DNA from: Candidatus Kaiserbacteria bacterium
GTDB lineage: Bacteria > Patescibacteriota > Minisyncoccia > Phycocordibacterales > UBA2100
DNA: 64,000 bases
Assembly (NCBI GenBank): GCA_016217925.1
Contig: JACRFK010000005.1
Coordinates: 44,170 to 108,169, forward strand
Direction: 5' to 3'
The notes beneath the pieces were generated by a model that was not told where the DNA came from, searched no databases, and saw only the letters and a program-made list of their open reading frames with translations. The position numbers and the translations under genes are program-made. This document shows positions 29,570-42,411 of the stretch, piece after piece. Within the stretch, counting starts at the first letter, position 1. Every line of letters begins with the position of its first letter.

Positions 29570-30970
29570 ATGGATTTGTCGACACTAACGATTGCGGAGG
29601 CTCGTCGCGCATTGGACGCCAAAGAATATTCCGCGCTCGAACTTACGAACGCATATTTGGATGCTATTGCCCAGAAAGACGGAGAATTCCACGCATACCT
29701 AGAAGTATGGACTGATTCGGCACGTGAGGAGGCAAAGGCGGCGGATGCGATGATTGCGGCGGGCAAGTCGCAGCCGCTTACGGGAATTCCTATTGCGGTC
29801 AAGGACAATATGCTCATTGAAGGTCGTATCGTGTCGGCCGCATCGAAAATCTTGGAAAATTATCACGCCTCATACGATGCGACTGTCATTTCAAAATTAA
29901 AAGCGCAGGGCGTTGTATTTCTCGGCCGCACCAATATGGATGAATTCGCGCTCGGCAGCTCCACGGAAAATTCGGCCTATGGCCCCACCAAGAATCCGCA
30001 CGACACATCCCGCGTGCCCGGCGGCACCTCAGGCGGCTCGGCTGCGGCTGTGGCGGCAGGAATGGCGCTTGCCGCGCTCGGGAGCGACACGGGCGGCTCT
30101 ATCCGCCAGCCGGCGGCATTTTGCGGCGTCGTCGGGCTGAAGCCCACATATGGCGCTGTTTCCCGTTCCGGCCTTATCGCCGCAGCTTCCTCGCTCGACC
30201 AGATAGGCACGCTCGCGAAGAACGTGAATGATGCAAAAATCCTCTTCGATGCGATTCGCGGTCACGACGCGATGGACAGTACCTCTATAGAAAATCCGAA
30301 ATCCGAAATCCGAAACCCGAAAAAGCTTGGGGTGCCGCGGGAGTTTCTTACAGATTTGAATCCGGAAATACGGACGCAATTCGAGAGCACACTGCAGACG
30401 CTAAAAGATAAGGGATACTCGGTCACTGACGTTGCGCTACCGTCTTTGCAGTACGCGCTTGCGGTGTACTACATCATTAACCCTGCGGAAGTTTCTACGA
30501 ATCTCGCGCGGCTCGACGGCATCCGCTACGGGCTTTCCGTCCCCGCGGATGTCATCGGGGAAGTGTATTCAAAGACGCGCGCCGCGGGATTCGGCGCTGA
30601 GACACGCCGTCGCATCCTCGTCGGCACGTTCGTACTTTCTTCGGGATACGCCGATGCGTACTACCGCAAGGCGCGCTCGGCGCGCGAGCTTATACGCGCC
30701 GATTTTGCAAAAGCGTTTGAATCCGTAGATGCGATTGTCATGCCGACGACGCCATCTCCCGCATTTAAACTCGGCGAGAAAAATAATGACCCCGTATCAC
30801 TGTATCTCGAAGACATTTTCACGGTGCCTGTAAATCTCGCAGGAGTACCCGCAATATCGGTGCCTGGTGGCACCGTGGAGCGCGATGGAAAAAAGCTGCC
30901 TGTAGGATTTCAGATAATCGGTGCGTGGGGCGGGGAACAGACACTCTTTGCCATCGGCAAAGATGTCTGA
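29570..30970 (+). CDS. gatA: Glu-tRNA(Gln)/Asp-tRNA(Asn) amidotransferase subunit A (amidase signature)
   Basis: GGSSGGSAAAVAAG amidase signature; Ser-cisSer-Lys triad context; 466 aa. Confidence 0.9.
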   Translation: MDLSTLTIAEARRALDAKEYSALELTNAYLDAIAQKDGEFHAYLEVWTDSAREEAKAADAMIAAGKSQPLTGIPIAVKDNMLIEGRIVSAASKILENYHASYDATVISKLKAQGVVFLGRTNMDEFALGSSTENSAYGPTKNPHDTSRVPGGTSGGSAAAVAAGMALAALGSDTGGSIRQPAAFCGVVGLKPTYGAVSRSGLIAAASSLDQIGTLAKNVNDAKILFDAIRGHDAMDSTSIENPKSEIRNPKKLGVPREFLTDLNPEIRTQFESTLQTLKDKGYSVTDVALPSLQYALAVYYIINPAEVSTNLARLDGIRYGLSVPADVIGEVYSKTRAAGFGAETRRRILVGTFVLSSGYADAYYRKARSARELIRADFAKAFESVDAIVMPTTPSPAFKLGEKNNDPVSLYLEDIFTVPVNLAGVPAISVPGGTVERDGKKLPVGFQIIGAWGGEQTLFAIGKDV

Positions 30971-31093: not shown

Positions 31094-31804
31094 ATGGACT
31101 CCAATCCCGCACCCGGCAGCTCAATAGGGTCGGCGCTTTGGTTTCTCGGCGAGGTCGCATTCAAGTGGATTCCCGGTGCGGTGGTAAGCATCGCAGGCAC
31201 CGGAGTCGCGGCGCCTTCGGGAGAAGCGTCACCATTCGCCACGCCCATTACGGCCCCAGTGACCGCTCCGCAGATCGTTCAGTATCTACAGACGGCGTCG
31301 GCGCCTGGAGCGTACGACAGACTTTTCCAACAGTGGAGCACCTTTGTCGCGTTCTCACTTCTCATCTCGTTGTTGCTGGGCGCGCTTTCGATCTACTGCT
31401 CGATACGAGTTTTTCAGATACGCCAGCTCGAAAGACGTAAATTTGCGGCGGCGCAGCGTACGGTCGTGGCGCATGATGTGCCGAAAACGCAGTTACGCTG
31501 GAACAGAATACTGGAACAAGCAAACAGTGATTCCGAGCAGTCGTGGCGGCTCGCGATACTCGAGGCAGACATCATGCTCAACGAGCTCCTCGATGTGAGA
31601 GGTTATAGGGGTGAGACGATGGCAGACAAAATGCGCGGCGTTGACCGCACGGATTTCAACTCGATCGATCTCGCGTGGGAGGCTCACAAGATCCGTAACA
31701 AGATCGCGCACGACGGCAGCGCGCACCAGCTCACGGCGCGCGAGACGCGTCGAGTCGTCGCTTTGTACGAAAGAGTGCTGAAAGAATCCCGCTTCATTGA
31801 GTAG
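31094..31804 (+). CDS. membrane-anchored protein with C-terminal HEPN-like (DUF4145-like) domain
   Basis: One TM (FVAFSLLISLLLGALSIYCSI), then a C-terminal R-x4-H motif (KIRNKIAHDG) in a helical context typical of HEPN. Confidence 0.45.
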   Translation: MDSNPAPGSSIGSALWFLGEVAFKWIPGAVVSIAGTGVAAPSGEASPFATPITAPVTAPQIVQYLQTASAPGAYDRLFQQWSTFVAFSLLISLLLGALSIYCSIRVFQIRQLERRKFAAAQRTVVAHDVPKTQLRWNRILEQANSDSEQSWRLAILEADIMLNELLDVRGYRGETMADKMRGVDRTDFNSIDLAWEAHKIRNKIAHDGSAHQLTARETRRVVALYERVLKESRFIE

Positions 31805-32480: not shown

Positions 32481-32564
32481 CCGAGCATGATAACACAAGG
32501 TTTCTGGATATCAGTCGGTTGTCCAGTGCTTGCATGCAGTGGCGTATACGTCTATACTCACAAA

Positions 32565-32868
32565 AGCGGGGTGGAGCAGTAGTAGCTCGCAAGGCTCAAT
32601 ATGGGCTCGTTCACGAGCAATTGTGAACGGAACACTTGTCAAATTCGGTGAAACCTCTCTCGTGCCACGAGGTGGCAATACCGAGCCAAGTCCCGCCGGC
32701 GGCGGGAAAGGTGTAGAGACTAGATGGCAGGCTCCCAGACGGATACTTGAAAAGTATCGTGAGGGATGAAGGTATAGTCCAGACCACGAATCCACTGGTA
32801 GTGGAGCGGCGAAAGCCGTAGCGGTATGCATAACCTTGAGGTCGCAGGTGCAAGTCCTGCCCCCGCAA
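32565..32868 (+). tRNA. tRNA(CAU) (initiator-like tRNA-fMet; Ile2/elongator Met not excluded) interrupted by a group I intron between U33 and C34
   Basis: 5' exon AGCGGGGTGGAGCAGTAGTAGCTCGCAAGGCT (32565..32596) nearly matches E. coli tRNA-fMet 1-26; 3' exon CATAACCTTGAGGTCGCAGGTGCAAGTCCTGCCCCCGCAA (32829..32868); spliced anticodon loop is CTCATAA; 1:72 A.A mismatch. Confidence 0.8.
32597..32828 (+). ncRNA. self-splicing group I intron, subgroup IC3-like (232 nt, no internal ORF)
   Basis: Conserved core blocks GTCAAATTCGGTGAAACC, TGGCAATACCGAGCCAAG, AAAGGTGTAGAGACTAGATGGCA (R) and AAGGTATAGTCC (S) align with the Azoarcus pre-tRNA-Ile intron; 5' exon ends in U and the intron ends in G. Confidence 0.8.
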
Positions 32869-32960
32869 CAGAATTGTGACGCTTGGAACTCGTTCCGTCA
32901 GGCGTCGAAAGTGCAAGAAGTCGGTACTATACCGACGGACCTAAAAGCTCAAAGGAACGA

Positions 32961-32988
32961 CAAGGCCGCGATGAAAATCGCGGCTTTG
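32961..32988. terminator. hairpin between the tRNA 3' end and the convergent gene (bidirectional terminator candidate)
   Basis: caaggccgcgat-gaaa-atcgcggctttg. Confidence 0.45.
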
Positions 32989-33010
32989 TCGTGTTGCGGG
33001 TCAGGGATAT

Positions 33011-33685
33011 TTAGTTAGACTTGGAGGAGTTAAGGTTGATAGCTAAAGAATTTATACTTCCCACCGGTTCTCCACTTCGATTACACAGGCTGATTTTACC
33101 TGACATCCTATAAACTCCGGATAAATCGGTTAGGCTTCTACTGATTCCTGCAAGATGAACAGGTTCGCAGGAAGTCAAAGCTTCATCCGGTACTGCGGAG
33201 AATGCAACCGAATTATGAAAAGGAGTATGTCTTAGTTCTACGAAAATATCAAAGAAAGAATTCGCCGGAATATTGCTTCCCCCTATACCAACCGGCATAC
33301 GGACAAGCCGTTCGGCCACACCCGTACTTCGATTCGACTTACTGCTGTTGAGATTGACCGCTAAACCCCGTGATGTTGTGCCCGTTAAGCTCATACTTAC
33401 AATCTCTGTAGCCACATCCGGCAAACCATCGCTATCCACATCGCCAATCACAGAACCCTCGATTATTGCAGTTCCTTTCGCTTCAAATGTCTGGGCCAAA
33501 CGCTCATTAAAAAACTTCACTTTGCCCTTGACAACCATGTGGTATGAACTGATCCCCCTGCTAGGGGAGGTGGCGAAGCTTACGACGGGCGCTGCAAAAA
33601 GTACACCCGCGAGGAGAATCGACGCGAAAAAAGCAGCCCCAGAGGTCAAAAGCATCAGCGCTGTTGTCGATGGTCCGAACTTCAT
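33011..33685 (-). CDS. secreted hypothetical protein with internal repeat
   Basis: Signal peptide MKFGPSTTALMLLTSGAAFFASILLAGVLFAAP; repeated A(V/I)NLNSSKSN segment. Confidence 0.55.
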   Translation of the reverse strand: MKFGPSTTALMLLTSGAAFFASILLAGVLFAAPVVSFATSPSRGISSYHMVVKGKVKFFNERLAQTFEAKGTAIIEGSVIGDVDSDGLPDVATEIVSMSLTGTTSRGLAVNLNSSKSNRSTGVAERLVRMPVGIGGSNIPANSFFDIFVELRHTPFHNSVAFSAVPDEALTSCEPVHLAGISRSLTDLSGVYRMSGKISLCNRSGEPVGSINSLAINLNSSKSN

Positions 33686-34089
33686 GTAGTGCCAGCCTAA
33701 GGACTAATGTATCGGATGTCAAGCGAGAGAAAATCCTGTGACTATGGCGATTTAAGACCAGCGAACCAACCTGAAATCAGGTGCCAATCCCGTCGTATAC
33801 TTGCAACAAATACTGAAAAGGCTCCCGCATGTCGGGGGCTTTTTCAGTATTCGGATTGTGCGGGGAGCGAGGCAACTGCTTGCCTCGCCTGCGGACTTGC
33901 AAGGCGGAGCGATGCCGAGCTAGCAGGCGAGGCCGCGAGCCGGGGTCGCGAAATTTCCGAGCGGCGGCGAGGAAATATTTGTGACCATGTCCTGCCCAAG
34001 CCTGCCCCCACAATGCACAGACGAGCGCACCAAGAGCTGCGGCAAGTGCTACCATTGCAGGACAGTCGGAGGAGATACCGGCCGGACAT

Positions 34090-34576
34090 TATGGACACAT
34101 CGGGAGAAAAACCATTTGCATTACTCAGGATTCTTTTCGGTGCAGTGTGGCTCGTTGATGCTGTATTCAAGTGGAATCCAGCATTTTTCGACGCTTTCAC
34201 GTCTTACGTCGTAGGAGGTACACAAAATCAGCCTCCTCTCGTGCAATCATGGATCGATCTGTGGGTGAATGGGGCAAACGTGGACCCATATTCTTTCGCC
34301 GTCGTTGTGGCGATTGGGGAAACTGCGATAGCGCTGAGTCTGTTGTTCGGCGTACTTACTCAGCTCGGCATCGCAGGCGGGATCGCGATGATGTTGGTCG
34401 TCTGGTCTACTGCCGAAGGATTTGGGGGGCCATATGTCGCGGGCTCCACCGACATCGGCGCCGCGGCCATTTACGTCATCGTTTTTGTCGCGCTCTGGTT
34501 CGGGCGTTGTTGGCGACAATACAGCCTCGATCCCTTAATAAGAAAATGGCTTCCGGTTTTGTACCAGCATTGGTAA
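34090..34576 (+). CDS. DoxX-family membrane protein
   Basis: 4 TM helices; DoxX-like pattern (FALLRILFGAVWLVDAVFKW...); 162 aa. Confidence 0.65.
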
Positions 34577-34596
34577 GGCACAGATGGCGCTCCTTT

Positions 34597-34776
34597 TTAG
34601 GGCTCTTGCAGGGCGGCAAAGATGACCTCGGTCACCCCCAAAAAAGCGAATAACAGAAGCGAGAGCAAGAATTGTTTCCACGACCAAGTCAGTATCGCGT
34701 TGCCGGCAGAGTAGACAAGGAAGACGCCGGCCAATGCCAAGAGTACGGAGTTGGCCTGTAAAATGTGTCCCCACAT
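34597..34776 (-). CDS. putative small membrane protein (59 aa), absent from the ORF track
   Basis: MWGHILQANSVLLALAGVFLVYSAGNAILTWSWKQFLLSLLLFAFLGVTEVIFAALQEP; two hydrophobic helices; convergent with doxX. Confidence 0.3.
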   Translation of the reverse strand: MWGHILQANSVLLALAGVFLVYSAGNAILTWSWKQFLLSLLLFAFLGVTEVIFAALQEP

Positions 34777-34854
34777 GAATTAAAGCGTAGCACAAAAGAC
34801 ACAGGTGGGGATAATGAAATGGACGTACGTATACGCGCTATATACAATATCAAT

Positions 34855-35544
34855 ATGGCAAAATCGAAGGAACGAATCCAGGCGAAAGTTCTGCGTAACA
34901 AAGGCCGGAGCATTCTTTCTATCGCGGAGGAGTTGAAAGTCTCAAAAGCGAGCGTTAGCTCATGGTGTCGAGATATTGTATTAACTGAGAAACAGATCCA
35001 ATTACTCACAGAGCAAGGTCAGCAAGGCGCCCGTCGCGGACAGTTACTGGGGGCCGCTGTAAATCGAAAGAAAAAGGAAGATAGCATCGCTCGATATCGT
35101 CTTGACGCCCAAAACGAGCTCCATAATTTAACACCCCGAGAAGTTCTCTTGGCGGGACTGGGGATTTATTGGGGGGAAGGCATCAAGGGAACAGGTACGG
35201 TGGCGGTGACAAATTCAGACCCAAGAGTTATTTCTTTTATGCTCCACTGGTTTCGTAGCATGTTCGACGTGCCGAAAGAGATGTTCCGTCCCCAGATATT
35301 TATAAATGACACACATCGGCCCCGGGAGAAGACTGTTCGAAAGTTCTGGTCTACATTACTCGATATACCTGATGCGCAGTTTCGCAAAGTCGTTTTTATA
35401 AAAGTAAGGAACAAGAAGGTTTACGAAAACCACGATTCGTATTATGGTGTCTTAGCGCTTCGAGTCAGGAAGGGAACAAGTTTGAAGTATAGAGTTCTTG
35501 GTTATTTGGACGCACTCGGAGCACAATACAATAAGCCGACGTAG
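34855..35544 (+). CDS. HTH + LAGLIDADG-like putative homing-endonuclease-family protein (paralog 2); 3' end overlaps tRNA(CAU) by 10 nt
   Basis: ILSIAEELKVSKASVSSWCRDI HTH; LLAGLGIYWGEGIKGTGTVAVTNSDP motif; paralogous to the ORF at 31794..32480; stop TAG lies inside the tRNA acceptor stem. Confidence 0.6.
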   Translation: MAKSKERIQAKVLRNKGRSILSIAEELKVSKASVSSWCRDIVLTEKQIQLLTEQGQQGARRGQLLGAAVNRKKKEDSIARYRLDAQNELHNLTPREVLLAGLGIYWGEGIKGTGTVAVTNSDPRVISFMLHWFRSMFDVPKEMFRPQIFINDTHRPREKTVRKFWSTLLDIPDAQFRKVVFIKVRNKKVYENHDSYYGVLALRVRKGTSLKYRVLGYLDALGAQYNKPT

Positions 35545-35607
35545 CTCAACGGTTAGAGCGGAGCCCTCATAAAGCTCAGGTTACAGGTTCGATTCCTGTC
35601 GTCGGCA
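35535..35607 (+). tRNA. tRNA-Met/Ile2 (anticodon CAU), intron-less, elongator-type (G1:C72)
   Basis: GCCGACG acceptor; anticodon loop CTCATAA; T-arm GGTTCGATTCC; 73 nt. Confidence 0.85.
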
Positions 35608-35650
35608 TTTCATTGAAAAATGAGTGATTTTCAAGTATTGTGTGCATGTT

Positions 35651-35724
35651 GCGGGTGTAGCTCAATTGGTTAGAGCACTCCCCTGTCACGGGAGAGGCTG
35701 CGGGTTCGAGCCCCGTCACTCGCG
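35651..35724 (+). tRNA. tRNA-Asp (anticodon GUC)
   Basis: GCGGGTG acceptor; anticodon loop CTGTCAC; T-arm GGGTTCGAGCCCC; 74 nt. Confidence 0.9.
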
Positions 35725-35734
35725 CTAGTGAGAC

Positions 35735-35765
35735 AAAAGGCCGCCTGAAAAGGTGGCCTTTTGCG
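35735..35765 (+). terminator. rho-independent terminator after the tRNA pair
   Basis: aaaaggccgcc-tgaaa-aggtggcctttt. Confidence 0.6.
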
Positions 35766-35812
35766 CACAGGGCAAGCGAAGAGGGAAGCGCGCGGATGGT
35801 ACCATCGTATGT

Positions 35813-38800
35813 ATGGTAGAGCGTTCGCATCAAGGTCCTGGAAAAGGTCCTCTGGGAGGTCCGCGGGCATCTCAAGATCAACAACAAGTTGATGAGAAAG
35901 GAATAAAAAGCGACTTGGCCGTTCTCCTACGAAGTCTAGAAGACATGGAGAAACGTGTCGTGAAATCAGGTCAACAGGTTTTTTTCGGTACAGCTCAGCT
36001 CGGCCATCGTATCGAGACATTGCAACGTACTCACCAAGGCGGGACCCACGATGTGCGGATAATGTATGACGCACTTTTTGATGCGGGAGTTCCTGCGGCT
36101 GCTTTGGAGGATTTTGGCAGAAATGTTGCAAAGAGAGGAGTTCCAGACAACCAGCTCTTCAGCACAGGATACATAAAAGAAAAGTTCTTCTCCAAAGGAG
36201 TTATTTCCGAGGCAGGACTCAAATTCAACCCCGGCGAAGGCGGGGAAGCGTGGCTCAGTAAACATGTCCAAGAAGAGCTTGAAGGATTAAGAGGTTTCGA
36301 TCTCGGCGCTGCTTGCAAGGTCCAAGACCTCGCGAGGTCAATGGGAACACAGTATGGCAATTCAGCGGCGATGATGACGCGGCTCATGTTTGTATGCAGC
36401 GGTAACGAACCTGGTGCCGAAGAGAGATCCGTTCGCTTTTCCGATCCCGCCGAAAAGATAGGGCTCCTCGTCCGAAGTCGCCTTGCAGAAGCCCGTACAA
36501 AAGGGGTGAGAGAAGAAAATACGTTTGTGGAAGGGATGCAGATGTTTTTAGGCGTATACGCAGATATTACGGCGAAAGTTCTTCAAAACGCAAAACCGGA
36601 ACAGCAAGCAAATATACATGAGAGATCAAAAGCGATGCTTTCCAAGCTCCTTCAATCGGAACAACTTCGAGCGGCGCATCTGGACCCCGGCAAGAGTCCT
36701 CCCGACCCTTTCAGTATATTCAGCGAACTGTTGCGAGAGGAGGGCGCAATAAATCCTTGGGTTGTCGGTGACAGCACCGAGACACCTTTTGACATCGGCA
36801 AGTTCCACCTCCTAATCTCTCCGGACGTGCCGCGCGGGCTTGTTGCCGACGCTGTCTTCGTCCTCAACAACTACCAGGAGGCGTTACTTGCACAGGATGT
36901 AGCAAAAATCCCCGCAAGTGTGCAAAAGTATAAAGACAGACAGCGGCAGGCAGGTGCGAACGCGGAACTACCCTCGGGTCTTGATATAACGAAAGCACTT
37001 ACCAATGCAGCTTCACGCATATGCAGGTTGCGGGGAGAGAAATTCAATGCACCTAATCCAAAGGAGGACACCGAAGAAGTGCTGCGTCTTAAAAGACAAG
37101 AGTACGAACGAATAGTCGAGGATTTCGTGAGGCCACTTGGACGAGGCATTCCCCCCTTCTCAGCCCTCTTACGTATTGTAGACCCCAAGAAAGTCGTAAG
37201 AGACGGCCAGATTAGGGACGATTTCATTCCGCTGCTCAAGAGCATACCTAAATTTAGCGATACAGCGGAAGATGCAGATAAGGTTAGAATAGTCGCTTCT
37301 TCGGTAAAGACGTTCCTGGAAGATCCGGACCCTTACTTGGATGTTCCGCTTTTGGGCACAGAGGGTGATTATTCATTGCGCACGCTGCTCACTATCCGAG
37401 CCAATGAGTGGTTCGATAAGGAAATCCTTCTAAGAGGTCCCTACGCACATTCAGACAGGAAGGGAGCACCTCCGCCCGAGCCGCTCATTCCGCCGCGCGA
37501 TACATGGCGTGTCCCAAAAGAGCGTCTCGTAGAATTGGCGAAGAATTTCAATACCGCCGCGGGAGCAAAATGGTTGTGGGCCAGAGAGTGGATCGAGGAT
37601 GCTTGTAAGATTCTTCGAAGACTACCGAATAGTTATGAAAATATTCTCGGCTTCGCTTCGCGCGAATCAAAAAGGTACTACAAAATGCCGGGAGAATACG
37701 AAGTAGTTTTCTATGCAAGTGCGACCGACGCAATGAGCAACATTGTAGATAAATTATTCCCCAACATGGTTGCGGGAGATTATTTTATCGGCTCACCGCA
37801 GGAATACGAGAGTATGGCGGATCCCCTCATTCATAAGGGTGCCCGATTTGAAGCGGCATATATCAACGAACGAATCGGCGATACGCGCCGTACAAAGACT
37901 CCGGATCAATTTTATGATGACATAGTCCGCATCATCGAAAGTCCCAGGAAAGATGGGCGACTCCCGCGAGCAATCTTTCTTAGCAGCAAAACCCGCTTCG
38001 GTGATGCGGTTGGTGTAACGCCCCCCGAGCCGCGCCGCGTGCTTGACGAAAATGGAAAAGAAACCGGGGAAGAAAAGATGTTTTACACCCCAAACACTCA
38101 CGGGCTTTCCATGATTATTCAAAGACTCAAGAGCCGCTATCCTTCCGTGCCGGTTGCTGTCGACGGGTGTCAAAGCGTTGGCCGCAACGATCGCGACGAA
38201 GACCTCAGTCGTCTCGGCTGCGACATATTCATTAATAGTGGTGGCAAAGGTCCTGGTATCGAAAACGTTTCAATGGTCGCTATCAGAAAGGTTAGCCTGG
38301 AGCAACGGGACGATAAGGGAAATGTTGTCAGAAAGGACGGCAAGCCGGTTTTTACAACCCCGGAGCATCACTGGTTGGAACACATCACAGATGAGAAAGT
38401 CTTACGGAATCCAGAATCTGTATTGACCCCAGGCAAGGGGACCGTCGACATCAGTCGCGTCGCGGCGTTAGGTTTCGCGTTACAACTGCTCGATTCAAGG
38501 ATAGATACATGGAGCGTCATTGACCCTAGCGACAAGCGTAAGCAGCGTGACCGGATAGCCGATCATATGGGGGCGATGACTGAGCACATGCTGACGCGCA
38601 CACAGGAATATGCGGGGTCCCTATTTAAAAGATTGCAAACCGCCAATTTACCTTTTCCCATTCCAGATGAAGCGAGTCTTGCAAAAAATCCTGAATTCGT
38701 AAAACGTTTCGGTTGTCAGGTAGTCCATCCCGCTCATCAAAATATTATCGACTACGACGGAATCGTCACGCTGACCTTTCCCAATATCGGTACAGTCGAG

Positions 38801-39157
38801 CGTAAGAACGTCGTGCTGAACGAGGGTACGCCGGAACAACGAGAGCTACGCATTCCGTATAGAGACAACTACCTTAAGACAGCACTTGACCGTGAGGGAT
38901 GGCCGAGCGAGCAGTGCAAGAAAGGTGGTAATGCTTGGCGTTTTTCAGTTCACGCCTCTACGTTCCCCACGAATGAGCATATCGACAACCTAGTCGAAAA
39001 GATAGCTGATGTGCACATTGAATTTCTCAAGTTGCAGATTGAGAAAGGCAACAGGTTGGCGGACAAAGCCGGTGATGAGAACCTAAGAATTACCTCATGG
39101 GAAAGCTTATTGGAAAGGACGGAAAACGTCCAAGACTATGAATGGTTAGAGGACTAA
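35813..39157 (+). CDS. large hypothetical protein (~1115 aa) with a C-terminal class V aminotransferase / cysteine-desulfurase-like PLP-fold region
   Basis: C-terminal half has YASATDAM, DGCQSVG and FINSGGKGPGIENVSMVAIRK blocks resembling IscS/SufS-type (S/T)xHK and DAxQSxG motifs; N-terminal ~600 aa unrecognised; no signal peptide. Confidence 0.7.
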   Translation: MVERSHQGPGKGPLGGPRASQDQQQVDEKGIKSDLAVLLRSLEDMEKRVVKSGQQVFFGTAQLGHRIETLQRTHQGGTHDVRIMYDALFDAGVPAAALEDFGRNVAKRGVPDNQLFSTGYIKEKFFSKGVISEAGLKFNPGEGGEAWLSKHVQEELEGLRGFDLGAACKVQDLARSMGTQYGNSAAMMTRLMFVCSGNEPGAEERSVRFSDPAEKIGLLVRSRLAEARTKGVREENTFVEGMQMFLGVYADITAKVLQNAKPEQQANIHERSKAMLSKLLQSEQLRAAHLDPGKSPPDPFSIFSELLREEGAINPWVVGDSTETPFDIGKFHLLISPDVPRGLVADAVFVLNNYQEALLAQDVAKIPASVQKYKDRQRQAGANAELPSGLDITKALTNAASRICRLRGEKFNAPNPKEDTEEVLRLKRQEYERIVEDFVRPLGRGIPPFSALLRIVDPKKVVRDGQIRDDFIPLLKSIPKFSDTAEDADKVRIVASSVKTFLEDPDPYLDVPLLGTEGDYSLRTLLTIRANEWFDKEILLRGPYAHSDRKGAPPPEPLIPPRDTWRVPKERLVELAKNFNTAAGAKWLWAREWIEDACKILRRLPNSYENILGFASRESKRYYKMPGEYEVVFYASATDAMSNIVDKLFPNMVAGDYFIGSPQEYESMADPLIHKGARFEAAYINERIGDTRRTKTPDQFYDDIVRIIESPRKDGRLPRAIFLSSKTRFGDAVGVTPPEPRRVLDENGKETGEEKMFYTPNTHGLSMIIQRLKSRYPSVPVAVDGCQSVGRNDRDEDLSRLGCDIFINSGGKGPGIENVSMVAIRKVSLEQRDDKGNVVRKDGKPVFTTPEHHWLEHITDEKVLRNPESVLTPGKGTVDISRVAALGFALQLLDSRIDTWSVIDPSDKRKQRDRIADHMGAMTEHMLTRTQEYAGSLFKRLQTANLPFPIPDEASLAKNPEFVKRFGCQVVHPAHQNIIDYDGIVTLTFPNIGTVERKNVVLNEGTPEQRELRIPYRDNYLKTALDREGWPSEQCKKGGNAWRFSVHASTFPTNEHIDNLVEKIADVHIEFLKLQIEKGNRLADKAGDENLRITSWESLLERTENVQDYEWLED

Positions 39158-39195
39158 CCATTTGCTTTTTTTAACCCCGTGCGTAGAGTTATTGC

Positions 39196-39990
39196 ATGCT
39201 CCGCAAATTGCTCGAAAGCATAGGGCTGAACGCCAAGGAAGCAGAGGTGTATCTGGCTTGTCTGAAGCTCGGAACGCAGGATATCGCCACCTTGAGCAAG
39301 GAAACGAAACTTGCCCCGTTTGACGTGAGCGTCATTTTGACCAACCTTCTGGACAGGGGGTTCGTCAGCAAATTCTCCCGCGAGAAGGATTTCTTCACTC
39401 CGCAAGAGCCGGGCATTTTGGTCAATATTCTCGAGAACGGAAAAATGAGGCTCGAGGCCAACATCTCGAACTTCAAAAAGCATTTGAAGCATTTTGAGGA
39501 TTACATGAATCCAGCCTTCACCAAGCCGGAAATCGCATTCTATGAGGGAGCGGAGGGCATCGTGGCAGCATACGAAGACACGCTGACGTCAAAAACGGAG
39601 ATTTTGGCGTTTGCGTCCATAGACGACACGGAAAACATCTTGCCCGAGTACGTACCCAAGTACTACAAGCGGCGTAAAGCGGCAAAGATACCGATACGCG
39701 CGATCTTCCCCGATACAAAAATGGCGCGGGCGCGCCAGAAGAAAGATGTCGAAGAGCTGCGCGAGAGCCGCCTCTTGCCGAAATCCGTCTTGAATATCGA
39801 GATCGAAATAAATGTGTACGATGATAAGGTCGCCTATTTCTCAATCCCCGAGAAGCTCGCCATCATCGTCAAAAGCAAGCTCATCGCGGCGAGTATGCGA
39901 GAAATGTTCGGTCTCTGCTGGAAAATGGCCGATACGTACGCCGCGGTTGCCGAGCCACCCACACCCGCGAGAGCTAAGAAGAAGCAATAG
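39196..39990 (+). CDS. TrmB-family transcriptional regulator
   Basis: N-terminal winged HTH (LGLNAKEAEVYLACLKLGTQDIATLSKETKLAPFDVSVILTNLLDRGFV) typical of TrmB; C-terminal sensor-like domain. Confidence 0.7.
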   Translation: MLRKLLESIGLNAKEAEVYLACLKLGTQDIATLSKETKLAPFDVSVILTNLLDRGFVSKFSREKDFFTPQEPGILVNILENGKMRLEANISNFKKHLKHFEDYMNPAFTKPEIAFYEGAEGIVAAYEDTLTSKTEILAFASIDDTENILPEYVPKYYKRRKAAKIPIRAIFPDTKMARARQKKDVEELRESRLLPKSVLNIEIEINVYDDKVAYFSIPEKLAIIVKSKLIAASMREMFGLCWKMADTYAAVAEPPTPARAKKKQ

Positions 39991-40912
39991 TTCTCGACGA
40001 TTTCTTGTACTCCGCATGATTTGCGGGGCCCGATGCGGCTATGTGGTCCATTTCATATGTCCTCACTTGGAATTCGATGAGTTTCCCTTCGAGGCAACTG
40101 AGTACGGTGTGTACGCTCCGGTAGCCGTTCTCCTTGGGATTTGCGATGTAATCTTTGTACCGCTCGGGGAAATGCCGCCAGAGTTTGTGAAGCACCTCAA
40201 TCGCTTTCCGGCAATCTTTTTCGGACAATGTCAGTATGCGGAAGCCGTGTATATCGTAGATGTCGTTGATACTCTTGTTCTTAAGCGCAACTTTGTTGTA
40301 GACACCGAAGATGTTCTTGACCCTGTTCTCAATACTGAAATCCTTGATACCGGCCTTCCTGAGTGCGTCTTCGAGTATCCCGCGAATGGAAAGGATAAGA
40401 TGTTGGTCAATGAACATCTGTTTTTGGACGACGCTCTCGAAGAGGGCGAAATTCTCCGGGTCGAATGTCTTGAAGACCGCATCCTCAAGCATGTACCGGA
40501 GTTTCCAGAGACCGAAGTGATTGGCCACGTCGAGCCACTGCCGGTAGCGTTTTTCTTCCGGAAGCAGCACCTTGTTCTCATACAAGTCATACAGTGTCTC
40601 GAGGAGGGCGAGTGTGACGGCTTCGCTCGAGTGGTGCAGCGGGTCGCGCACGTCGAGGAATTCTTTCGGGTGGGGGAGCGACTTCAGCATCGCCGTTTTC
40701 AGTTGCCAGATACGTTTGCACTTCTCGGGCACGTATGCTTCGGCCTCCGGGACAGGGGGTGTCAGAAATGCGAGCCAAATGCGAGGAGGAATCTTCAAGC
40801 GCTTCTCGGCTTCCAAAATCTTCTTATATGCGAGCTTTCCCATGAGGAATGGTTGAAATTCCTGGGGGAAAAGTGCCACATAGTCCTCAAAATAGCCCTT
40901 GGGGACAGCCAT
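39974..40912 (-). CDS. RelA/SpoT-homologue (p)ppGpp synthetase-domain protein (small alarmone synthetase-like) with ~140-aa N-terminal extension
   Basis: Synthetase-domain blocks RVKNIFGVYNKV, DIHGFRIL, GYRSVHTVL, EFQVRTYEMDHIAASG; no hydrolase HD motif. Confidence 0.8.
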   Translation of the reverse strand: MAVPKGYFEDYVALFPQEFQPFLMGKLAYKKILEAEKRLKIPPRIWLAFLTPPVPEAEAYVPEKCKRIWQLKTAMLKSLPHPKEFLDVRDPLHHSSEAVTLALLETLYDLYENKVLLPEEKRYRQWLDVANHFGLWKLRYMLEDAVFKTFDPENFALFESVVQKQMFIDQHLILSIRGILEDALRKAGIKDFSIENRVKNIFGVYNKVALKNKSINDIYDIHGFRILTLSEKDCRKAIEVLHKLWRHFPERYKDYIANPKENGYRSVHTVLSCLEGKLIEFQVRTYEMDHIAASGPANHAEYKKSSRTIASS

Positions 40913-41002
40913 ATTCCTTATTTATACGCACAATAAGCCCTGGGGGCAACAGAACGAGGATTTCCACAGGGAGGGGGCGGAGGGTGCTAGAATGGTTGAT
41001 AT

Positions 41003-41581
41003 ATGACAACGATCCAAGGCGGAGGAGTAAAGATGGAGATGCCACAAGGCCCGGAGCAGCCTAAGGGGTTCGATTTCAAACCAATTGATGACTCAGCGAC
41101 GTTTTTCAAGTACAAGACGACCATCGAGGGTTTGGAATGGGACCCGGGGGATACAAGTGAGGGGCGGGTAAAGATGCGGGAACGGACGCCGGATTTAAAG
41201 AAGCTGTACCTGCAGAGTTTGAATGAAAATAATCGCCTCAAACTTTTTCTGATAATGGACGGGGAAAAAGTAGACGGATTTGCGGCGATAAAAATCGATG
41301 CGCAAGATGAGGTGGGAAAGCGCCTCGGCACCGTCACGCATCTGTGGCTTTCCGAGCGTCGTCGCCAGGGAGGTACACTCTTGAATGTTCTCGATTCCGC
41401 TGAAAAGCAGATGCGCAAAGAGGGCTGCACAGACGGGATAATCAACGCGCCCGAAGCGCTCGCCACATTTGAGCGTGTGGCAGGGCACACTAAGCCCAGT
41501 AATTTCTTCGAGCTTAAGGGTGCGGCGAATGACAACGAACAGTCCAAGCCGAGGGCAGCCGTTGAGAGAAAAGTCGCTTAA
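41003..41581 (+). CDS. hypothetical protein, possible GNAT-fold acetyltransferase
   Basis: C-terminal RRRQGGTLLNVL resembles the acetyl-CoA-binding R/Q-x-x-G-x-G/A motif; weak. Confidence 0.4.
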   Translation: MTTIQGGGVKMEMPQGPEQPKGFDFKPIDDSATFFKYKTTIEGLEWDPGDTSEGRVKMRERTPDLKKLYLQSLNENNRLKLFLIMDGEKVDGFAAIKIDAQDEVGKRLGTVTHLWLSERRRQGGTLLNVLDSAEKQMRKEGCTDGIINAPEALATFERVAGHTKPSNFFELKGAANDNEQSKPRAAVERKVA

Positions 41582-41583
41582 CC

Positions 41584-42243
41584 ATGAAAACACCGCGCGA
41601 GATTTATGCGGCATACAAAATAATGCCGGCTTTGCAAACGCACCAGCTTCGCGTCGCAGCGGTGGGGAAGTTGATCTGCGACAACTTTACACAGCCTATT
41701 GAGAAGCTCGATGTAATCCTTGCGTGCCTCTTTCACGACATGGGAAATATCGTCAAATTCAAACTCGGGCAAATCCCGGAATTTCTTGAGCCGGAGGGTT
41801 TGGAATACTGGCAGAGGGTGAAAGATGAGTTTAAAAACAAGTACGGGAACGACCAGCATGAGGCGTCGAAGCAGATCGCACGCGAGCTGGGGCTACCCAA
41901 TCCCGTTATTGGATACATCGATGCCGTGGCGTTCGCGAAGGCCGAGACTACTCTTGCTAGTGGTTCATGGGAGGAAAAGATCTGCGAATACGCGGACACT
42001 CGCGTTTCCCCGCACGGCATACTCCCTTTGGTTGCAAGACTCGAAGAAGGGCGTAAAAGATACGAGGGGCGTACAGCTGACACCGGTCTGACCGCATCGC
42101 GCGGGCGGTTCGATGAACTTCTCGATGCCGAGCGGGCGATAGAAAAACAGATCTTCGCGCAAGCGACGATCCGGCCCGAAGATATCAACGACGCGACGGT
42201 CGCACCGCTCGTGGAAGAATTGTGGGAGTATCCAGTCTCGTGA
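41584..42243 (+). CDS. HD-domain phosphohydrolase
   Basis: H...LFHDMGN metal-binding motif; 219 aa. Confidence 0.7.
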   Translation: MKTPREIYAAYKIMPALQTHQLRVAAVGKLICDNFTQPIEKLDVILACLFHDMGNIVKFKLGQIPEFLEPEGLEYWQRVKDEFKNKYGNDQHEASKQIARELGLPNPVIGYIDAVAFAKAETTLASGSWEEKICEYADTRVSPHGILPLVARLEEGRKRYEGRTADTGLTASRGRFDELLDAERAIEKQIFAQATIRPEDINDATVAPLVEELWEYPVS

Positions 42244-42258
42244 TATTCTCACGTTGTT

Positions 42259-42331
42259 GCCGTTGTAGCTCAGTTGGTAGAGCACGTCATTGGTAATGAC
42301 GAGGTCTCCGGTTCAATCCCGGACAACGGCT
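42259..42331 (+). tRNA. tRNA-Thr (anticodon GGU)
   Basis: GCCGTTG acceptor; anticodon loop TTGGTAA; T-arm GGTTCAATCC; 73 nt. Confidence 0.9.
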
Positions 42332-42411
42332 CACGATTGAACTCAAGTCTGTTGTGAGGAGCCACTCAACTGCGGACCTCGCTTCGGGTTAAATACTGGT
42401 ATGATGTTGGT

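Follow-up and report, generated by a model that had tools for sequence, protein, structure and literature searches.

An ORF-less IC3-type group I intron in the anticodon loop of a likely initiator tRNA gene from Candidatus Kaiserbacteria

The stretch of DNA analyzed here (hereafter the window) comprises 64,000 nucleotides of contig JACRFK010000005.1, from the Candidatus Kaiserbacteria assembly GCA_016217925.1, and contains on its plus strand, at 32565-32868, an initiator-type tRNA(CAU) gene into which a group I intron of 232 nucleotides (nt) is inserted behind U33. The 5' exon (32565-32596, AGCGGGGTGGAGCAGTAGTAGCTCGCAAGGCT) spans tRNA positions 1-33 in 32 nt because its D-loop is short, and it ends in U33. 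It is followed by the intron (32597-32828), whose first base is C and whose last base is G, and by the 3' exon (32829-32868, CATAACCTTG...CCCCGCAA, in full CATAACCTTGAGGTCGCAGGTGCAAGTCCTGCCCCCGCAA), which supplies tRNA positions 34-73 with the anticodon CAU, the T-loop UGCAAGU (32849-32855) and the discriminator base A73, the terminal CCA not being encoded. When introns are allowed ARAGORN reports this gene as tRNA-Met(cat) with i(33,232) at 32565-32869 and folds the spliced sequence into a normal cloverleaf; in its default mode it reports six other tRNAs in the window, and the split gene is not among them. A search with the Rfam family Intron_gpI (RF00028) recovered the intron as the sole group I match in the window, at 32587-32801 of the plus strand, with a score of 69.1 bits (gathering score 50 bits), an E-value of 1.9e-15 and an alignment covering model positions 1-253 of 253. 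A sequence-only reading of this stretch had placed the split gene, its exons and a 232-nt intron exactly here and had suggested this Rfam search as a check; the sequence, ARAGORN and RF00028 agree with it. They also bear out its placing of the insertion between U33 and C34, with a 5' exon ending in U and an intron ending in G. The dinucleotide CA is repeated at both junctions, and for this reason boundaries at 33/34, 34/35 and 35/36 would all yield an identical mature RNA. The boundaries at 34/35 and 35/36 were rejected, as they break the rule of a U before the 5' splice site and a G at the end of the intron; 33/34 is the sole boundary of the three that has both.

A secondary structure running from P1 to P9b was derived by hand from the window sequence, by homology with IC3 introns, and all its pairs are standard but for one A·C in P9. 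All elements lie on the plus strand. P1 (32593-32607) is formed by the exon sequence GGCU and the first intron base C1, paired with the guide GGGCU (32603-32607), so that the splice-site wobble U33·G falls at 32596/32604. The sequence UAUG, drawn from the P1 loop AAUAU and G7, pairs with CAUA at the start of the 3' exon to give a P10 of 4 bp. P2 (32608-32629) is a 9-bp hairpin capped by a GCAA tetraloop of the GNRA kind. The core begins with the 5' strand of P3 (CUUGUC, 32635-32640), which pairs with GGCAGG at 32726-32731, and continues with the P4-P5 domain (32644-32685), in which P4 is formed by 32644-32650 and 32679-32685 and the P5 hairpin by 32654-32675, with AAA as J4/5 and CAA as J5/4; this domain is supported by both covariation and the minimum free energy (MFE) fold. 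P6 (CC/GG) and the P6a hairpin occupy 32686-32711. The R and S elements expected of a P7 from the sequence-only reading are present, R (GTGTAGAGACTAGA) at 32711-32724 and S (AAGGTATAGTCC, also written AAGGUAUAGUCC) at 32769-32780; between them the P7 strand G(A)GACUA (32716-32722) pairs with UAGUCC (32775-32780, inside the S element) to close the pseudoknot. By analogy with other group I introns, the guanosine-binding site would be the G32718-C32779 pair beside the bulged A32717. P8 (32733-32766) contains an internal loop, AGA/UGA. The 3' domain (32783-32825) is a three-way junction of P9 (ACCAC/GCGGU, 32783-32787/32821-32825, which holds the A·C), P9a (32791-32805) and P9b (32806-32819, capped by GAAA), and the intron closes with the terminal guanosine, omega G, at 32828. 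The MFE fold of -92.7 kcal/mol (z = -3.41 against shuffles) yields by itself P1, P2, P4/P5, P6a, P7, P8, P9a and P9b.

Scanning species-representative genomes with the J3/4-P4 block gave at least 120 loci in many phyla; among the matches listed the host tRNAs were mostly Leu(UAA), CAU-type and Arg. A clade-specific pattern gave 38 further loci in metagenomes, and the two scans combined yielded 33 unique introns of the window type, 199-639 nt long. In all 33 the 5' exon ends in ...GGCU, the intron ends in G (the omega G is thus present in 33/33) and the 3' exon starts with CAUAACC; P1 is paired at five of five positions in 30 of them. Covariation was counted on a MAFFT alignment of 28 of these introns against the explicit structure. 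Standard pairs fill 91.5 % of its cells, as opposed to 31.6-45.1 % in controls in which the 3' partners were slid by 1-3 columns, and in 42 of the 75 pairs both partners have changed. Covariation scored 0.364 for the structure and 0.055-0.089 when it was slid, and none of 500 shuffles reached the observed values. As the structure was taken from the window sequence it is biased in its own favour over the slid versions, but the size of the gap in pairing and the number of double changes far exceed that bias. The covarying helices are P2 (compensatory changes in 9/9 pairs), P3 (100 % paired, double changes in 3/6 pairs), P5, P6a (double changes in 7/7 pairs), P9a and P9b, the last with a GAAA loop that is invariant in 28/28 sequences. 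The proximal part of P8 covaries as well, and its distal part is variable in length and poorly aligned; the lower pairing of distal P8 and P5 (68-86 %) reflects the alignment and not the structure. P4, P6 and P7 are invariant or nearly so, P7 being paired in 100 % of cases, and the U·G pair at the splice site is found in all 28 aligned sequences, as is expected for a catalytic core. The sequence-only reading had named a lack of P3/P7 pairing under covariation analysis as a refutation, and both helices are 100 % paired here. The compensatory changes in the peripheral helices point to selection on the fold, and the T-stem of the exons covaries too (GCAGG/CCUGC, GCGGG/CCCGC and CCGCG/CGCGG). The Rfam E-value, the z-score of the fold and the covariation together exclude a chance origin of the structure.

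The intron shows the traits of the IC3 kind: it is compact, without a P5abc extension, has GCAA as L2 and GAAA as L9b, and shares its core with tRNA introns labelled IC3. We rest this placement on shared blocks and domain architecture. Gap-tolerant global pairwise identity was dropped as evidence for the subgroup, since it gave 73-82 % for all introns compared, including IA and Microgenomatia ones. The sequence-only reading had likened the core to that of the Azoarcus sp. BH72 pre-tRNA-Ile(CAU) ribozyme, for which we used as proxy a Rhodocyclaceae locus (L079) that is 91 % identical to the ribozyme sequence. The likeness stands for the IC3-type core, where three blocks, GUCAAAUUCGGNGAAACC, UGGCAA..CCGAGCCAAG and AAGGUGUAGAGACUAGANGGCA, are near-identical, and for the GNRA-capped P2 and the GAAA tetraloop in the P9 domain. 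It does not extend to the architecture: the Azoarcus intron lies at 36/37, after the CAU of a tRNA-Ile2, its P1 is CAU/GUG and its P9 is one simple hairpin, none of which is found in the window intron, with its 33/34 site in a likely initiator tRNA, GGCU/GGGCU P1 and three-way P9. Among the matches listed Azoarcus-type Ile2 introns measure about 190-214 nt, compared with 232 nt here. The IC3 introns of tRNA-Leu(UAA) from Anabaena, chloroplasts and many bacteria have the same core and, in Acidobacteriota examples labelled IC3 (PMC13011429, Table S5), the same 3' motif GUCCAGACCACGAA-hairpin-GCGGCGAAAGCCG-AGUGGUA-G; they differ in their site (34/35 in tRNA-Leu) and in their P1 and guide. The cyanobacterial tRNA-fMet intron (fMet.2Ug of Williams 2020) agrees with the window intron in its host, a CAU tRNA that is likely the initiator in the window too, in its 33/34 site, in the U before the 5' splice site and the intron-final G, and in its IC3-type core blocks and P9/P9a/P9b junction. 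The window copy differs from it in being without an open reading frame (ORF), in its length of 232 nt and in its Kaiserbacteria-like host from the candidate phyla radiation (CPR). The host tRNAs differ as well: that of the window has an unusual elbow (no G18G19, and G55), A1 x A72 in place of C1 x A72, and an anticodon stem whose base has just two G-C pairs. The closest architecture is the fMet/Leu IC3 type with a P9/P9a/P9b junction and not that of Azoarcus.

Insertion at 33/34 of tRNA-fMet is one of the four classical types of bacterial tRNA intron, all of them IC3 (PMC13011429; Williams 2020, bioRxiv 10.1101/2020.01.27.920355). The core blocks and the 3' domain motif of the window intron are common to the introns that Table S5 of PMC13011429 labels IC3, namely fMet 33/34 of Bacteroidota, Ile2 33/34 of Bacillota_B and Leu 34/35 of Acidobacteriota. 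For Patescibacteria the same study lists IA introns at 35/36 of tRNA-Asn/Asp, and introns at 33/34 of Met(CAU) in two Microgenomatia genomes. The latter resemble the window in site, CAU host tRNA and phylum, yet their core sequence is visibly different, whereas the window intron has the IC3-labelled blocks. In intron mode ARAGORN miscalls the fMet 33/34 genes of two of our relatives (L033 and L078): misled by a CAA at the start of the intron, it reports a tRNA-Leu(CAA) interrupted at 36/37; one Microgenomatia genome bears the same Leu(CAA) 36/37 miscall in Table 1 of PMC13011429.

The window intron contains no ORF and its P1 loop is 5 nt long, and it thus does not carry the optional endonuclease of this family. 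One relative (L141), on the 474-kb contig Ga0156091_117, has a 639-nt intron with a 185-aa ORF that begins at intron position 6, in the P1 loop, and matches PDB 2OST with an E-value of 1.3e-49 and Pfam PF11645 (PDDEXK_5) with 6.5e-47. A second (L150) has a 417-nt intron with a truncated endonuclease ORF, and the two appear to be mobile and decaying stages of one intron family. PDB 2OST is I-Ssp6803I. Biniszkiewicz, Cesnaviciene and Shub reportedly described the cyanobacterial tRNA-fMet intron in 1994, from Synechocystis PCC 6803, Dermocarpa and Scytonema; among these three original examples only the Synechocystis intron is known to contain an ORF. The tRNA-fMet intron of Synechocystis PCC 6803 encodes I-Ssp6803I and is 655 nt long (PMC1995217; PMC3384342); the 639-nt relative, with its close 2OST homologue in the P1 loop, is of similar length. 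Mobile members of the family carry an I-Ssp6803I-type PD-(D/E)XK homing endonuclease that the window copy lacks, and by virtue of this decisive link the window intron is an ORF-less member of the classical tRNA-fMet family.

The genomic context bears on how the intron came to this locus. Two Candidatus Kaiserbacteria metagenome-assembled genomes (MAGs; L033, MFKV01000008, and L090, MFLZ01000019) match the window across ligA, gatA (here the gatA-like ORF 29570-30970) and their neighbours, with nucleotide identity of about 70 %, and have the same split tRNA in the same place. In the NCBI taxonomy Kaiserbacteria belong to the Parcubacteria group, itself part of the Patescibacteria group, and the CPR-type host that had been suspected from the letters alone is borne out by this synteny. 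At least 15 metagenomic contigs keep the upstream gene order at 67-85 % identity, with the intron present in all. In a neighbour-joining tree built from the introns over 195 conserved columns, which broadly follows host tRNA type, 15 of the 17 introns whose host tRNAs are of the window's type, with G at position 55, share one clade with the window copy; its nearest relative (L129) is 91.8 % identical. As the syntenic relatives all carry the split gene, these observations support a CPR host and, at the level of sequence comparison, vertical inheritance of the intron at an orthologous locus within the clade. An alternative is that the intron is not an old vertical resident and arrived recently and horizontally, by endonuclease-mediated homing into the anticodon region of tRNA-fMet. 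In favour of this, the family has endonuclease-bearing members, full-length in one case and truncated in the other, and it is scattered over Cyanobacteria, Omnitrophota, Planctomycetia, Saccharibacteria and Bacteroidota among other groups, which does imply lateral transfer in the past. However, the window copy has no ORF, the syntenic loci of many diverged relatives are all occupied, and the introns of G55-type host tRNAs mostly cluster; the transfer should therefore be older than the divergence of the clade, and we consider a recent arrival distinctly unlikely.

The order ligA, gatA, ORF 31094-31804 on the 5' side of the split tRNA is kept in many relatives, and on its 3' side synteny is broken (window 32870-42340 compared with L126, L129, L131, L134 and L138). 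Sequence homologous to window 41583-42336, the tRNA-Thr region, comes immediately after the tRNA in several contigs, and only L144 has the downstream order of the window, which suggests a rearrangement or an insertion of about 9 kb beside the tRNA gene. A scan for sigma-70 consensus sequences called no plus-strand promoter upstream of the split tRNA. By eye a TTGCAT-17 nt-TATACT arrangement can be seen at 32533-32561, ending 6 nt 5' of the tRNA, whose first hexamer matches at 3/6 positions; it would yield an almost leaderless precursor, and we draw no claim from it. About 100 nt 3' of the tRNA lies a G+C-rich hairpin, GCCGCGAT-GAAA-ATCGCGGC (32965-32984). It was called as a minus-strand terminator and could act for the tRNA as well as for the convergent gene (33011-33685).

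Based on these observations we propose that the element is, in identity and mode of action, very probably an ORF-less, self-splicing group I intron of the IC3 type at U33/C34 of an initiator tRNA(CAU). In the first step a free guanosine nucleotide held in the P7 pocket would attack the 5' splice site. The terminal G (32828) would then take the place of that guanosine, with P10 holding the CAUA at the start of the 3' exon, and the freed 3'-OH of U33 would attack the 3' splice site, giving the ligated ...GGCU|CAUAACC... and restoring the CUCAUAA anticodon loop. CCA would be added after splicing, an order of processing that we infer. Several points weigh against this proposal. The window copy has the A·C mismatch in P9, and P10 is just 1-2 bp in many relatives. 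We infer self-splicing from conservation alone, and the assignment to the IC3 kind goes by similarity to introns so labelled rather than by a formal subgroup model. The neighbour-joining tree carries no support values, and two G55-type relatives (L124 and L127) fall outside its main clade. The anticodon stem is one short of the three canonical initiator G-C pairs, 29:41 being A-U, and a second, intronless initiator gene may sit elsewhere in the genome, outside the window. The first two of these points, together with the loss of the homing endonuclease, which is to be expected of introns near the end of their life cycle, are also what would be seen if the intron were a decayed relic that no longer splices itself, the split gene being then a pseudogene or dependent on a host protein cofactor. 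Such decay is hard to reconcile with catalytic-core elements that are all intact and near-invariant across the 28 relatives, with compensatory changes in the peripheral helices and covariation in the T-stem of the exons, or with retention of the split gene at an orthologous locus across 67-85 % identity. The window also contains no uninterrupted initiator-like gene that could stand in for it, nor any other split tRNA, and we regard a relic as very improbable.

The spliced tRNA has several features of an initiator, namely the A1 x A72 mismatch, A11:U24, G30-C40, G31-C39 and A73. No pair forms at 1:72, where the window has A x A and relatives have C x A or U x U, such that the mismatch is kept while the bases change. 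As the sequence-only reading had noticed, the tRNA resembles E. coli tRNA-fMet: it shares about 82 % of its sequence with tRNA-Met genes of E. coli (median 4 places per genome), and its best match, a textbook initiator sequence, lies in a tandem triplet adjoining amiC, metZWV on the E. coli map. Judging by these features, the host gene is likely an initiator tRNA. That it might instead be an elongator tRNA-Met or a lysidine-bearing tRNA-Ile2 is highly improbable, the least probable of the three alternatives: the anticodon CAU is common to all three classes, one canonical G-C pair is wanting, the Saccharibacteria loci L007, L085 and L106 have such 33/34 introns in a G1-C72 elongator-type CAU tRNA and the Patescibacteria cases of PMC13011429 are labelled simply Met, but the conserved 1:72 mismatch, A11:U24 and A73, the four initiator genes as best E. 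coli matches and the presence of a separate G1-C72 tRNA(CAU) at 35535-35607 all speak for the initiator. All three alternatives, recent arrival, relic and non-initiator host, are thus weakly supported. The separate tRNA(CAU) may be either the elongator Met or Ile2; the Rfam alignment flags a C31 x A39 mismatch in it, where its anticodon stem has its base.

Two further observations concern the host tRNAs. The T-loop of the initiator tRNA has G55 (32850), a position that in tRNAs is almost always U (pseudouridine), and its D-loop AGUAGUA (32578-32584) is without the G18G19 doublet and best read as A18 G19. The same loops occur in L033, L078, L115 and L122-L153, and among the 33 unique relatives both traits co-occur perfectly, a D-loop without GG going with UGC in 20 and one with GG going with UUC in 12; the remaining six tRNAs of the window have normal loops. 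This suggests a swap of G18/U55 for A18/G55 in the tRNA elbow of a CPR lineage, as far as sequence comparison can tell, which may be a single event because the relatives are phylogenetically related. Separately, five MAGs of Saccharibacteria/Patescibacteria (L007, L032, L060, L085 and L106) have an intron of the IC3 kind at 33/34 of an elongator-type (G1-C72) CAU tRNA. In L007 and L032 the same 8 kb also contain an initiator gene that is uninterrupted. The 5' exon does not lie immediately upstream in L060, L085 and L106, where the sequence before P1 resembles an opposite-strand ORF start (...CATAAC...), which may be a different arrangement of the endonuclease.

CPR genomes usually have single copies of their tRNAs. 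Because of this habit, and because no uninterrupted initiator-like gene is found in the window, splicing of the proposed intron is probably obligatory for translation initiation. One may carry this further and imagine a family-level Kaiserbacteria-like lineage in which the sole initiator gene is permanently split, guanosine-dependent splicing gates initiation and the intron is kept as an RNA-level regulator in a regulator-poor genome, in co-occurrence with a lineage-specific initiator elbow in which A18/G55 replaces G18/U55; we regard this as a rather unlikely, speculative extension.

The sequence-only reading had held tRNA-borne group I introns to be rare in bacteria, a premise that the surveys show to be outdated. 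There are thousands of them in many phyla: Williams 2020 (10.1101/2020.01.27.920355) maps 5,292 such genes across some 80,000 genomes, and Nakagawa 2026 (PMC13011429) counts 333 in 4,934 complete genomes from 18 phyla; our own scan with a single pattern gave at least 120 loci. The description of the intron as a compact new natural ribozyme is likewise not supported: it belongs to the classical IC3 type at fMet 33/34, and at 232 nt it is not especially compact, as relatives of 199-200 nt exist. The host record is new, while the kind of element and its mechanism are not, the intron family having been known since 1994. Among the 95 complete Patescibacteria genomes surveyed in PMC13011429 there was no class-IC tRNA intron. 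The window and its relatives show an IC3 fMet intron that has become established among Kaiserbacteria-like lineages and occurs in Saccharibacteria too, which refines that small-sample generalization; the copies in the Kaiserbacteria MAGs, whose accession prefixes look several years old, may already be within the counts of Williams 2020.

The main value of these findings lies in annotation and in what they add to intron natural history. The split gene escapes tRNA finders run by default, and such genomes would therefore seem to be without an initiator tRNA. The 33 natural variants, 199-639 nt long, are a ready covariation set for this ribozyme family. With them the classical tRNA-fMet IC3 intron family now extends into Paceibacteria-type Patescibacteria, where many diverged genomes have retained it at a single locus, stably and by vertical descent.

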